Shown: positions 14,046-19,358 of the stretch, piece by piece | Layout: every line of letters begins with the position of its first letter | Position numbering within the stretch: the stretch's first letter is position 1 | NCBI RefSeq assembly: GCF_007827555.1 | Contig: NZ_VISS01000015.1 | Location: 25,998 to 57,997, forward strand | Reading direction: 5' to 3' | From: Aeribacillus composti | Lineage (GTDB): Bacteria > Bacillota > Bacilli > Bacillales > Aeribacillaceae | DNA length: 32,000 nucleotides | Program-made: the position numbers and the translations under genes | Notes under the pieces: model-generated | Databases searched by the model: none | What the model saw: the letters and a program-made list of their open reading frames with translations, nothing else | What the model was told of the DNA's origin: nothing

Positions 14046-14784
14046 CTATAATATGCTAATTAAGCTCCTTTTTTCGTACATACGTTCGTATTCAGATGGT
14101 GAAAAATACTCTGTTGCGGAGTGAATACGTTTATTATTGTAAAATATTTCTATATACTCAAATATGCTCTTTTTTGTTTTATAACGAGTCTGATAAATTA
14201 GTTCTTTTTTAATTATCCCATGAAATGATTCAATACAAGCGTTGTCATAACAATTTCCTTTGCGGCTCATGCTACATTTCATTCCGTATTCCATTAGCTT
14301 AGCTTGATAGTCATTTGAAGCATATTGACTCCCTCGATCAGAATGATGGAGGATAGAACCCTGTGGCTGTTGACGCTGATAGGCTTGCTTTAATGCACTT
14401 AACACTAGCTCCTTTTTCATGGAACAGTCTATATGCCAGCCGACTATTTTCCTTGAATACAAATCCATAATACTAGCTAGATAAAGCCAACCTTCATCCG
14501 TTGGAATGTATGTGATATCAGCTACCCATACTTCATTTGGTTTCGTAACAGTAAAATGTTGGTTTAATGAAGCATATCTGCGTTTTCAAGCCCACTACGG
14601 GTGAAGTACAGCCGTGCAAAAGGTTGTTCACTATCCGAACCAAGTTTGTTCTACATACGCACAAACATATTTCATTCGACCTAAATCTTTTCCACATCAG
14701 ACCTTCCACATCAAGCCTAATATCCAGCACTCCGCACCAAATCCCCACCACATTCCATACTTTTCGTATTCCAACGCTTGACAT
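14046..14784 (-). mobile_element. IS3-family transposase (OrfB) remnant: 3' two-thirds in frame, 5' part degenerate
   Basis: ...LNQHFTVTKPNEVWVADITYIPTDEGWLYLASIMDLYSRKIVGW...HSDRGSQYAS...SMSRKGNCYDNACIESFHGIIKKE...YNNKRIHS is the DDE integrase core of IS3-family OrfB. The frame is closed by a TGA near 14590. Upstream sequence shows only frame-broken similarity. No OrfA is present. Confidence 0.8.
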
Positions 14785-14805
14785 GTTCGCAGCGGTGATT
14801 ATAAT
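14778..14805 (+). promoter_or_regulatory. Consensus sigma-A promoter of the T-box operon
   Basis: TTGACA (14778-14783), 16 nt, TATAAT (14800-14805), about 30 nt upstream of T-box Stem I. Confidence 0.7.
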
Positions 14806-14836
14806 TAATTAAAAAATTGTTAATAATTTTCTTACA

Positions 14837-15159
14837 ATAACTATGAAGAGGAAAAGTAAGGTTCAGTTATTTTTCACAGAGAGCTTCGATAGCTGAGAAG
14901 AAGCAAAAATACGAACCCGAACAATGGCCTCTGAGTTGCGTGCTGAAAGTATTATTTTCGTGTTTTATCCCAATAAAGCACGAAGGTACAAGTAGGTTCC
15001 GCCGAGTTTGGTACTCGTTACAAATACCACAGTATGAAGGGATTAAGCCCGTAGTACTGGCAGAGGCTGTCTTGTGCGAGCAAACAGTGAAGTAAGGTGG
15101 TACCACGTGAGCAAAACCACGTCCTTATCTAATTAGTAGATAAAGACGTGGTTTTTTTT
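14837..15159 (+). promoter_or_regulatory. T-box riboswitch leader, specifier codon AUG (methionine)
   Basis: Stem I base UAAC/GUUG with a GA (K-turn-like) motif UAUGA..GA. AGAGG (14847-51) pairs with CCUCU (14928-32). AGUA box at 14855-58. GGUUC pairs with GAACC. AG bulge AGAGAG at 14878-83. Distal helix GCUUC/GAAGC with loop GAUAGCUGAGAA. The 3' specifier loop is GAACA-AUG-G, with AUG at 14924-26. A GAAAGUA S-turn lies in Stem II and an F-box-like CGUUAC is present. T-box sequence AAGGUGGUACCACG at 15094-15107. Terminator at 15117-15159. Confidence 0.85.
15113..15159 (+). terminator. T-box intrinsic terminator (competes with the antiterminator)
   Basis: CCACGTCCTTATCTA-attag-TAGATAAAGACGTGG (15-bp stem, one mismatch) followed by eight T. 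The 5' arm overlaps sequence complementary to the T-box motif. Confidence 0.85.
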
Positions 15160-15188
15160 ATAAAACAACAATGTATGGGGGAAAATTT

Positions 15189-16058
15189 ATGAATCGTTTT
15201 TTAGTTATTCAAACTGATTTTGGATTAAGCGATGGAGCTGTCAGTGCAATGTATGGAGTCGCTTTGAATGTTAATCCCAGCCTGAGGATTTTTGATTTGA
15301 CCCACGATATTCCCCAATATAATATTTGGGAAGCGTCTTATAGGCTGTACCAAACGATATCGTATTGGCCAAAGGAGACGGTATTTATTTCTGTTGTTGA
15401 TCCGGGTGTCGGTTCAGAACGGAGAAGCATTGTTGTGAAGACAAAATCAAACCAATATATTGTGACACCCGACAATGGAACGATCACACATATAAAGAAG
15501 TATATTGGGATCGAAGAAGCAAGGCTGATCGATGAAAAGGTAAACCGGCTGCCAAATTCCGGGCATTCTTATACCTTCCATGGACGTGATATTTACGCTT
15601 ATACCGGCGCACGGCTTGCATCCGAAGTGATTACGTTTGAACAGGTGGGGCCGGAAATTCCAATCGATTCGCTAATTGAACTGCCGGTTTTAGAAGCCTA
15701 TATTCAAAATGGTGCGATTAAAGGGAATATTGATATACTTGATGTCCGCTTTGGAAACTTATGGACCAATATTGATCGCAGCTTGTTTCAGAAGTTAGAC
15801 GTAGATTACGGAGATTCTTTTGAAGTAACGATTGAAAATGAAACAAGACAAGTATATAAAAATATTATGACGTTTGGCAGATCATTTGCGGATAGTCATT
15901 TGGGCGAGCCTTTGCTTTACGTCAATTCGCTCGACAAAATCGGTGTGGCAATCAATCAAGGATCATTTGCGAAGGCCTACCATATTGAAGCAGGTGCCAA
16001 ATGGAAAATCACTATCTGCAAAGTACCGAATTTCGTATATAATGGAAATTCAATATAA
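15189..16058 (+). CDS. S-adenosyl-L-methionine hydroxide adenosyltransferase family protein (DUF62; SAM to adenosine + L-Met)
   Basis: Family hallmarks: VIQTDFGLSDG, DLTHDIP, VVDPGVGSERR, VTPDNG, YTFHGRDIYA, FGNLWTNI, GEPLLYVNSLDKIGVAINQGSF. These parallel the SalL/DUF62 sequences I recall. I chose the ATG at 15189 because GGGGGA lies 6 nt upstream. Confidence 0.9.
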   Translation: MNRFLVIQTDFGLSDGAVSAMYGVALNVNPSLRIFDLTHDIPQYNIWEASYRLYQTISYWPKETVFISVVDPGVGSERRSIVVKTKSNQYIVTPDNGTITHIKKYIGIEEARLIDEKVNRLPNSGHSYTFHGRDIYAYTGARLASEVITFEQVGPEIPIDSLIELPVLEAYIQNGAIKGNIDILDVRFGNLWTNIDRSLFQKLDVDYGDSFEVTIENETRQVYKNIMTFGRSFADSHLGEPLLYVNSLDKIGVAINQGSFAKAYHIEAGAKWKITICKVPNFVYNGNSI

Positions 16059-18424: not shown

Positions 18425-19223
18425 CCGAAAATCTCCTGTTCATCAGTTGACAGGTGTAACAAAGCTAATATGCTTTATCTTATGGTCGACTGCAGCTATG
18501 CTGACATACGACACTCGTATTCTACTATTTTTATTTTTAATTAGTATTCTCATTTTTATTATTTCAAAAATTAAATTTGAAGAGATATTGTTTGTTCTTG
18601 TATTTATTTTAGTATTTCTTTTCATCAACAATGTTGCCATTTATGTCTTTTCACCACAAGAAGGAGTAAAAATTTACGGCTCCAGCCATGTGTTATTTGA
18701 AATATCAGGAAGGTATAACGTCACATTGGAACAACTTTTTTACCAATTGAATATTACGTTAAAATATTTCACAGTGATCCCAGCGGCTTTGCTTTTTATT
18801 GTGACGACTCATCCGAGCGAATTCGCCGCTTCCCTCAATCGCATCGGTGTGAGTTATCGAATTTCGTATGCTGTTTCTTTGGCATTAAGATATATACCGG
18901 ACGTACAGCGGGATTTTCGGAATATAGCACGCGCCCAACAAGCTAGAGGCCTTGACATGTCCCGCAAAGAAAAACTTCCTAAACGGATCAAAAATGCTGC
19001 CTCCATCCTTGCACCGCTTATTTTATCAAGCCTAAACAAAATTGACACCATCAGCAACGCAATGGAACTGCGCGGCTTTGGCAAAAACAAAAAACGCACA
19101 TGGTATAGTGCAAGACCTTTCCAAAAAAGTGACTACTTTGCAATCGCTCTATTTACTATTCTGTTCATTGTCACCTTAATCATCACATTCCATGATGGAA
19201 GCCGGTTTTATAATCCGTTTTAA
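18396..19223 (+). CDS. ECF transporter transmembrane T-component (EcfT/CbiQ family)
   Basis: Polytopic protein with the conserved coupling-helix region ALRYIPDVQRDFRNIARAQQARG...ELR. TTG start with GGGAGG 9 nt upstream, overlapping the ATPase stop. An ATG at 18408 is an alternative. Confidence 0.85.
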   Translation: MAAEMLSYIDRKSPVHQLTGVTKLICFILWSTAAMLTYDTRILLFLFLISILIFIISKIKFEEILFVLVFILVFLFINNVAIYVFSPQEGVKIYGSSHVLFEISGRYNVTLEQLFYQLNITLKYFTVIPAALLFIVTTHPSEFAASLNRIGVSYRISYAVSLALRYIPDVQRDFRNIARAQQARGLDMSRKEKLPKRIKNAASILAPLILSSLNKIDTISNAMELRGFGKNKKRTWYSARPFQKSDYFAIALFTILFIVTLIITFHDGSRFYNPF

Positions 19224-19239
19224 AAATACTCCTACTGAT

Positions 19240-19279
19240 CGCATCCAGTAACGCTGTTTGTTGCTGGATGCGTATTTTA
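19240..19279 (+). terminator. Hairpin after the ECF operon (weak T tract)
   Basis: CGCATCCAG-15 nt-CTGGATGCG followed by TATTTTA. Confidence 0.4.
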
Positions 19280-19316
19280 TGAAAACATTTAAATTAGCCC
19301 AATTTTAGGGGTGGGC

Positions 19317-19358
19317 AGGTTGCTTCCATGGGCCCTAAGCTGGCAAGCCTTTTTTTTA
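19317..19358 (+). terminator. Rho-independent terminator (strong T tract)
   Basis: AGGTTGC...GCAAGCCT stem (one bulge), with inner GCTT/AAGC pairs, followed by TTTTTTTT. Confidence 0.5.

Follow-up and report, generated by a model that had tools for sequence, protein, structure and literature searches.

A methionine T-box operon pairing a DUF62 hydrolase with a dedicated ECF transporter: a candidate S-adenosylmethionine-scavenging system in free-living bacteria

[quoted passage not shown] The question is raised by a stretch of 32,000 nt from contig NZ_VISS01000015.1 (the window, whose positions are our coordinates wherever no locus number is given), in which a T-box leader precedes four genes, for a DUF62 enzyme, an ECF substrate-binding component (S), a fused EcfA-EcfA' ATPase (AA') and the transmembrane coupling component EcfT (T), all parts of the operon lying on the plus strand. 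An initial annotation of this DNA proposed that the transporter takes up SAM or a related adenosyl or methylthio compound, from which the enzyme releases methionine. Our analysis partly supports this interpretation: the methionine control and the coupling of enzyme to transporter are solid and broad, and the identity of the substrate is inferred from them. We put the chances at about even that this is a methionine-starvation-induced operon importing SAM or a sulfonium analogue, which DUF62 then splits into methionine and adenosine.

The layout of the operon agrees in most respects with what was first read from it. The promoter matches the consensus throughout, and the content of four genes is borne out by Pfam and TIGR matches, the fused ATPase exceeding the cut-offs of both TIGR04520 (423 bits) and TIGR04521 (369 bits). 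With EcfT and two EcfA ATPase domains encoded beside the S-component, the group I (dedicated) ECF architecture is complete. The gaps of 30 nt and 50 nt between genes and the 29-nt overlap of AA' and T are consistent with a single transcription unit, and the gene calls agree in related assemblies (a DUF62 protein of 289 aa in loci L001 and L002, and the same EcfT call in L001). More than one terminator had been claimed; a strong one follows EcfT, and the second, ending at 19358, is a U-run in a region with no stable hairpin (z = +1.49). This four-gene cassette recurs behind this kind of leader in 41 other species-level genomes, so that the operon is not a product of chance.

Table 1. Positions of the operon parts in the window and, in the last row, of related streptococcal loci in their own numbering.
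Feature	Position	Strand	Evidence
Sigma-70-type promoter, TTGACA-16 nt-TATAAT	14778-14805	+	Consensus 12/12; 29 nt 5' of T-box start
T-box leader, Rfam RF00230	14834-15129	+	108.9 bits, E = 2e-23; Stem I = 14834-14945
Specifier codon AUG (Met), then G14927	14924-14926	+	Rfam alignment register
Antiterminator helix, 7-nt bulge UGGUACC	15094-15126	+	Rfam alignment; fold -8.6 kcal/mol
Leader intrinsic terminator, then U8	15107-15161	+	-26.5 kcal/mol, z = -5.85
DUF62 / SAM hydroxide adenosyltransferase (SAM hydrolase, adenosine-forming), 289 aa	15189-16058	+	PF01887 1.4e-51, PF20257 4.2e-23
ECF S-component, PF07155/UPF0397, 184 aa	16089-16643	+	PF07155 1.3e-52
Fused EcfA-EcfA' ATPase, 576 aa, ABC domains linked by DUF3744	16694-18424	+	PF00005 x2, PF12558
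Transmembrane coupling component EcfT of the CbiQ family, TTG start, 275 aa	18396-19223	+	PF02361 2.2e-32
Operon intrinsic terminator, 14-bp stem	19237-19276	+	-22.4 kcal/mol, z = -5.56
Streptococcal DUF62 contexts	L153 19-4809; L163/L164 2773-8400		

The leader had been read as a T-box with a methionine specifier, and this reading stands. It matches the full RF00230 model (positions 1-219) above the gathering score of 93 bits, and a second detector, a purpose-built covariance model of Stem I, gives it 116.9 bits. The AUG and the G that follows it (14924-14927) lie immediately 5' of the CCUC strand closing the specifier loop, and the UGGU at 15098-15101 lies in a bulge where it would pair with the ACCA of the tRNA 3' end. 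Antiterminator and terminator compete for one shared strand, and none of 200 shuffled sequences folded as stably as the terminator. In 40 aligned leaders the AUG and its G are invariant while adjacent positions vary, and the AUG specifier was present in all 51 leaders collected, each directly 5' of a DUF62 gene (the window, 41 genome loci and 9 metagenome loci, the window's own contig, L083, not being recounted). Uncharged tRNA stabilises the antiterminator of a T-box. Judged from its sequence, the leader is a methionine-specific T-box switch, for which read-through on uncharged tRNA-Met is predicted.

The initial annotation staked its proposal on enzyme and transporter being conserved together, and we found them linked from both directions. 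A profile of the S-component, run on contigs from one genome per species, retrieved 80 loci (59-80% identity) from Bacillaceae, Paenibacillus, Clostridia, Peptostreptococcaceae, Carnobacterium, Enterococcus, Exiguobacterium and Chloroflexota. The S, AA' and T genes are adjacent in 75 of these 80, and directly 5' of the S gene there is an intact DUF62 gene in 46, a decayed one in 2 and none in 32. Upstream sequence is available for 45 genome loci with DUF62, and in 41 of these Rfam and the Stem I model place a T-box directly 5' of the gene; neither detector found one in the genome loci that lack DUF62. Metagenome contigs, searched independently with a profile of DUF62, yielded 80 loci (58-100% identity), 72 of them with enough flanking sequence to be informative. 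DUF62 belongs to an ECF cluster in 63 of the 72: the S gene is immediately 3' of it in 51, two have other gene orders (DUF62-AA'-T-S in L101, S-AA'-T-DUF62 in L148), and in 10 the AA' and T genes are present and S probably lies past the edge of the fetched sequence. The remaining 9 showed no ECF gene in the fetched locus. A large Streptococcus-type group carries the DUF62-S pair with no dedicated AA' or T gene beside it, which indicates that the tightest link is that of the enzyme with the S-component. Two tandem DUF62 paralogues directly 3' of ECF AA'-T genes were seen in one locus (L161 2480-4243).

The streptococcal arrangement (anginosus group, S. sanguinis and S. pneumoniae) has a common core of an M20 peptidase, a putative S-component of the MptD/Trep_Strep type, DUF62 and the UPF0397 S-component. 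On one contig (L153) the core is preceded by metN (TIGR02314, 345 bits) and metI. S. sanguinis has, about 5 kb downstream, a gene for a fused ECF ATPase of the DUF3744 type that abuts a PNP_UDP_1 gene. The locus looks like two pairs of hydrolase plus S-component at a site of methionine acquisition.

Methionine is not the only signal attached to this transporter family. SAM-I riboswitches were found at five clostridial-type loci, directly 5' of the S gene in four that are without DUF62 (L030, L053, L062 and L064) and 5' of DUF62-S-AA'-T in one metagenome locus (L131; 69 bits, E = 3e-16). The case of L131 led us to reject a strict split in which T-boxes would accompany DUF62 and S-boxes its absence. 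Nine Clostridium-type loci with no riboswitch (L024, L032, L033, L076, L092, L093, L099, L100 and L104, of which L032 lacks DUF62) have an inverted pair, CGAAY-N23-25-RTTCG, that encloses the -35 hexamer at most about 120 nt 5' of the first gene. In the PurBox of PurR, two inverted 14-bp boxes, AT-rich and centred on CGAA/TTCG, are set 16-17 bp apart (PMC8789054). The inverted pairs fit this geometry. Overall there is no enrichment of the motif, which occurs 20 times where 16 are expected; the promoters that carry it are interrelated. Long open reading frames (740-767 aa) upstream of the DUF62-less loci were considered as a conserved MetE-like partner and rejected, since the neighbours there are unrelated and variable (Ig-like proteins, a radical-SAM enzyme, MatE, GH3).

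What the enzyme would do with an imported compound is constrained by its family. The protein has the N- and C-terminal SAM_HAT domains (PF01887, 174.6 bits; PF20257, 81.9 bits) and aligns over its full length to solved DUF62 structures (2zbu, E = 1.4e-42; PH0463, E = 1e-35). It retains the Asp-Arg-His triad of PH0463, which we take to be D68, R75 and H127, in the motifs VVDPG, SERR and FHGRD, and the triad residues are invariant across 10 orthologues; by this conserved triad the predicted protein is of the hydrolase class. DUF62 enzymes convert SAM to adenosine and L-methionine by attack at C5', a reaction that needs a sulfonium leaving group. In the SN2 chemistry by which the fluorinase/DUF62 family works, only a sulfonium makes a good leaving group, so that S-adenosylhomocysteine (SAH) and 5'-methylthioadenosine (MTA) are disfavoured as substrates of the enzyme. 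The same Pfam domains and triad occur in the (R,S)-SAM hydrolases (StDUF62 of Salinispora, SAMH of Sulfolobus and Haloferax, and the PH0463 structure), whose products, adenosine and L-methionine, are those expected of the operon enzyme. Its identity to the characterised members is only 30-40%, and its score falls well short of the NCBIfam equivalog cut-offs. The literature examined presents these hydrolases as a form of internal damage control and reports for them no association with a transporter or a T-box.

The initial annotation held that bacterial DUF62 proteins have no firmly assigned role. This needs qualifying on one side, as Kornfuehrer 2020 reportedly proposes that they are stereoselective (R,S)-SAM hydrolases and archaeal DUF62 deletion strains accumulate the (R,S)-SAM epimer, with a larger internal share (bioRxiv 10.1101/2025.08.29.672840). 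It is upheld on the other, as (R,S)-SAM hydrolysis is disputed as the true function (PMC12120602). Decayed DUF62 genes lie 5' of an intact S-AA'-T set at L075 2618-3310 and L076 3013-3189; the modes of decay are replacement of D by N in the active site, a deletion within the gene that takes out the FHGRD motif, or reduction to a fragment, and they suggest recent loss of the enzyme with the transporter kept.

How these parts might work together can be set out as follows. In a cell short of methionine, uncharged tRNA-Met would pair both with the specifier codon AUG and with UGGU in the bulge, the antiterminator would be stabilised and RNA polymerase would read through into the genes. The dedicated transporter formed by S, AA' and T would then import SAM or a very close sulfonium analogue, possibly including the (R,S) epimer that builds up with age in non-living material. 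DUF62 would be expected, from the chemistry of its homologues and its conserved triad, to hydrolyse the imported compound to L-methionine and adenosine, so that the cell would gain methionine and a purine nucleoside. Lineages with a SAM-I riboswitch and no adjacent hydrolase could use imported SAM directly. A molecule composed of methionine and adenosine would explain why Met T-box, SAM-I and PurBox-like signals are all found on one transporter family, and from these converging sensors and the robust adjacency of enzyme and S-component SAM appears to be the simplest, most economical common substrate. We propose more tentatively, and at somewhat less than an even chance, that the PF07155/UPF0397 S-component itself is a high-affinity SAM importer, perhaps favouring the aged (R,S) epimer, with DUF62 as its dedicated intracellular partner. 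SAM epimerises spontaneously. Given this and the preference of characterised DUF62 enzymes for (R,S)-SAM, scavenging of aged extracellular SAM is an attractive refinement, which we offer as speculation.

Several observations weigh against uptake of SAM for its methionine. ECF systems are of low capacity, which is odd for the supply of an amino acid, and our literature search returned no binding or transport data for any member of the S-component family. The enzyme misses both NCBIfam equivalog cut-offs for (R)-SAM hydrolase (NF058624, 146.6 bits against 350; NF053629, 130.2 against 470), by margins that place it in a distinct subfamily, and those members of the DUF62 family that have been characterised work slowly and act specifically on (R,S)-SAM, their physiological role being disputed (PMC12120602). 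Among the S-AA'-T loci without DUF62, 28 of 32 (Paenibacillus, Chloroflexota and many Clostridia) showed neither a T-box nor a SAM riboswitch. The purine-responsive, PurR-like control suggested for the Clostridium-type promoters is a lead drawn from motif geometry. Finally, T-boxes were found in 10 of the DUF62-seeded metagenome loci, and 6 of the 10 precede a DUF62 gene with no S gene directly downstream (L095, L103, L109, L116, L117 and L125); four of the six can be judged and show no ECF gene over as much as 3.4 kb, and two are too short. These six loci argue that the T-box follows DUF62 more closely than it follows the transporter. Leaders below the reporting threshold were also considered for the Paenibacillus, Chloroflexota and other loci, and none was found at E <= 0.01 or with our own models. 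In L116 (3048-5607) the T-box and DUF62 are followed by an amidohydrolase of the M20 hydantoinase/carbamoylase family, possibly a second methionine-releasing enzyme.

The main rival draws on the same facts. The importer could carry methionine itself, or else a precursor that has no adenosyl group (S-methylmethionine, homocysteine, methionine sulfoxide or a methionine conjugate), with DUF62 merely co-induced to reclaim internal (R,S)-SAM; the operon would then hold two parallel methionine routes in one regulon rather than a pathway. The T-box-DUF62 loci with no adjacent S-component and the many transporter loci with no methionine or SAM signal leave room for this arrangement, as does the increased internal share of (R,S)-SAM in the archaeal deletion strains. 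The transporter classification database TCDB already names an ECF family for a methionine precursor, and in Streptococcus one contig has metN-metI upstream and the adjoining M20 peptidases could free methionine from conjugates. What it accounts for less well is the DUF62-S adjacency, which outlasts both gene rearrangement and the absence of AA' and T, as would be expected of a transporter and the first enzyme acting on its cargo (compare QueK-QrtT, below). Moreover, the internal pool of (R,S)-SAM is presumably tiny relative to the demand for methionine, and the PurBox-like operators at the Clostridium loci, DUF62-less L032 included, are left unexplained. We regard this alternative as unlikely, and as the most serious of those considered.

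A second alternative keeps the adenosyl moiety and gives up the link to the enzyme. Here the importer would carry another adenosyl or methylthio nucleoside (MTA, SAH, 5'-deoxyadenosine or adenosine) for methionine and purine salvage, and the substrate of DUF62 would be internal. Regulation of the Met, SAM and purine type fits MTA or SAH too, TCDB has a separate ECF family for MTA, and the PNP_UDP_1 gene beside the DUF3744 ECF ATPase of S. sanguinis belongs to a nucleosidase/phosphorylase family. Against it, no mtnN, mtnK, mtnA or luxS gene accompanies the operon in some 160 loci, the enzyme that does accompany it requires a sulfonium leaving group, and MTA has already been assigned to a distinct S-family, MtaT. 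We therefore consider this explanation improbable.

The S-component itself gives little direct indication of its ligand. Its AlphaFold2 model is of high quality (predicted local distance difference test score, pLDDT, 91.9; predicted template modelling score, pTM, 0.87), and the 28 best matches in a Foldseek search of the PDB are all ECF S-components with the six-helix S fold. The fold is equidistant from those of FolT, BioY, RibU, PanT, ThiT and HmpT (template modelling scores of 0.6-0.68, 14-22% identity), RibU being no closer than the others, and no sequence match to solved S-components, RibU and HmpT included, was obtained (E > 1). Assigning a ligand by a specific match of fold or sequence was accordingly rejected. 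An alignment of 92 S-components with an adjacent DUF62 gene and 34 without showed 35 positions whose conservation reaches 95% or more in each group, among them H66, D70, W78, W81, F114, W126, D134, Y138, E140, K144, Q148 and Y171. Eight of these residues, H66, D70, W78, W81, D134, Y138, E140 and Q148, line the predicted pocket. Positions that would distinguish the groups in specificity were not found in the 92 and 34 sequences, which argues that the ligand is the same whether or not the hydrolase adjoins. In three much longer proteins, P0140 (820 aa), P0183 (729 aa) and P0235 (619 aa), the S-component domain is N-terminal; these are presumably fusions to the ATPase or the T component.

The names under which this family is filed point elsewhere. 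Pfam labels it ECF-ribofla_trS, and NCBI propagates the name ECF-type riboflavin transporter substrate-binding protein from NF010182, which is typed as an equivalog. The protein scores 260.3 bits against the cut-off of 99 for the riboflavin transporter model NF010182/PRK13661, a score that shows membership in the sequence family of the model and nothing beyond it. PF07155/COG4720 also includes the vitamin B6 transporters PdxU and PdxU2/HmpT (PMC9997740), so the family covers several specificities. That the S-component carries riboflavin, or vitamin B6 in the manner of PdxU/HmpT, is very improbable in spite of these memberships, given that Rfam, run on the window and on 99 related loci, reported no flavin mononucleotide (FMN) riboswitch, that the RNAs found upstream are Met T-boxes and SAM-I riboswitches, that no rib or pdx genes are linked to the operon loci, and that the protein is no nearer to RibU or HmpT than to other solved S-components. 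The name riboflavin transporter is probably a systematic misannotation of the UPF0397 family; at the least, this widespread annotation looks wrong and deserves revisiting.

How much of this is new? Three ECF families of this kind, Mts, Hts and Mta, were reportedly predicted by Rodionov et al. in 2009 (J Bacteriol 191:42). Among the ECF families of the TCDB are Met-P, for methionine precursor (3.A.1.29, Mts genes), HtsTUV, entered as Unknown-ABC1, and MTA (MtaT) (PMC3654945). Like the operon, Met-P combines S, a duplicated ATPase and T in a group I ECF system, and its proposed link to methionine comes from regulation; the operon shares both its S/AA'/T architecture and its control by an S-box or Met T-box. 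The likeness is one of description, and HtsTUV (3.A.1.31) is an alternative match. The Met-P literature examined mentions no DUF62 partner, no SAM substrate and no streptococcal or PurBox contexts. A methionine-linked ECF transporter is thus probably not new, which tempers the novelty. Our literature search tied no ECF system to SAM uptake, and an earlier description of this operon may exist. Others may have noted the linkage of DUF62 and ECF genes before.

The closest functional analogue is the QueK-QrtT-QueL queuosine salvage operon of C. difficile (PMC11477304), in which a riboswitch controls an ECF S-component and a hydrolase that frees the useful part of the import. Its S-family, enzyme and ligand differ from those of the operon, and it is experimentally characterised whereas the operon is known from sequence; it provides a precedent for an ECF S-component combined with a hydrolase acting on an imported nucleoside. 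Known SAM transporters are drug/metabolite-type carriers of Rickettsia and Chlamydia, yeast Sam3 and Leishmania FBT (PMC3104491, PMC12676344). They share with the operon the proposed function, uptake of intact SAM, and belong to protein families unrelated to its ECF transporter. Bacterial SAM uptake is known from obligate intracellular parasites only (PMC12676344, November 2025). The importer described here, if specific for SAM, would be ATP-driven, of the ECF type and present in free-living Firmicutes, unlike the Rickettsia and Chlamydia carriers.

The operon is therefore a strong candidate for a first, putative SAM-scavenging system in free-living bacteria. If SAM is indeed the substrate, this would be the first SAM uptake system of free-living bacteria, with streptococcal pathogens among its carriers, and its spread across Bacillaceae, Clostridia, enterococci and streptococci would alter the parasite-only view. 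The role of DUF62 would be nutritional rather than purely one of damage control, which would help to settle its disputed physiology in bacteria, and it would be explained why the sensor differs between lineages, the operon being wired to a T-box for methionine, an S-box for SAM or a PurR-like control for purines. A recycling route for a costly cofactor would be added to its ecology, and SAM-analogue antibiotics such as sinefungin would have an entry route and a resistance locus. As an ECF importer with a dedicated processing enzyme, the operon makes both the purpose of DUF62 and the import of SAM by free-living bacteria directly testable.

The surroundings of the cassette vary. Some 300 nt 5' of the operon promoter there is a truncated open reading frame with an IS3-type integrase core (rve; 14046-14468, minus strand), and farther 5' a fragment of an IS110-family transposase (1167-1799, plus strand). 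In the L001 and L002 assemblies the cassette is 99% identical and the flanks differ (PDDEXK_2 and Y1_Tnp transposases); these differences and the insertion sequence (IS) remnants place it in a variable, IS-rich region. In several related loci (L004 1036-1145, L007 1536-1645; L040 1236-1421, L116 1244-1429) either an epsC RNA motif, on the opposite strand, or a 6S RNA gene lies upstream of the T-box, a hint that the neighbourhood is conserved in part among some Bacillaceae. In L005 (6712-7352) three tandem T-box leaders just 3' of EcfT belong to another, downstream gene. Elsewhere in the window, a xylose-type sugar utilisation cluster occupies 3235-13669, with genes for an aldose epimerase, a GFO/IDH oxidoreductase, an FGGY kinase, a xylose-isomerase-like TIM-barrel protein, a sugar ABC transporter and a divergent ROK regulator. 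Three open reading frames of 227-459 aa with no Pfam match lie at 24692-29146 (minus strand), within a polysaccharide-biosynthesis cluster that includes NeuB, a Polysacc_synt flippase, a glycosyltransferase, a mannose-1-phosphate guanylyltransferase and an epimerase.

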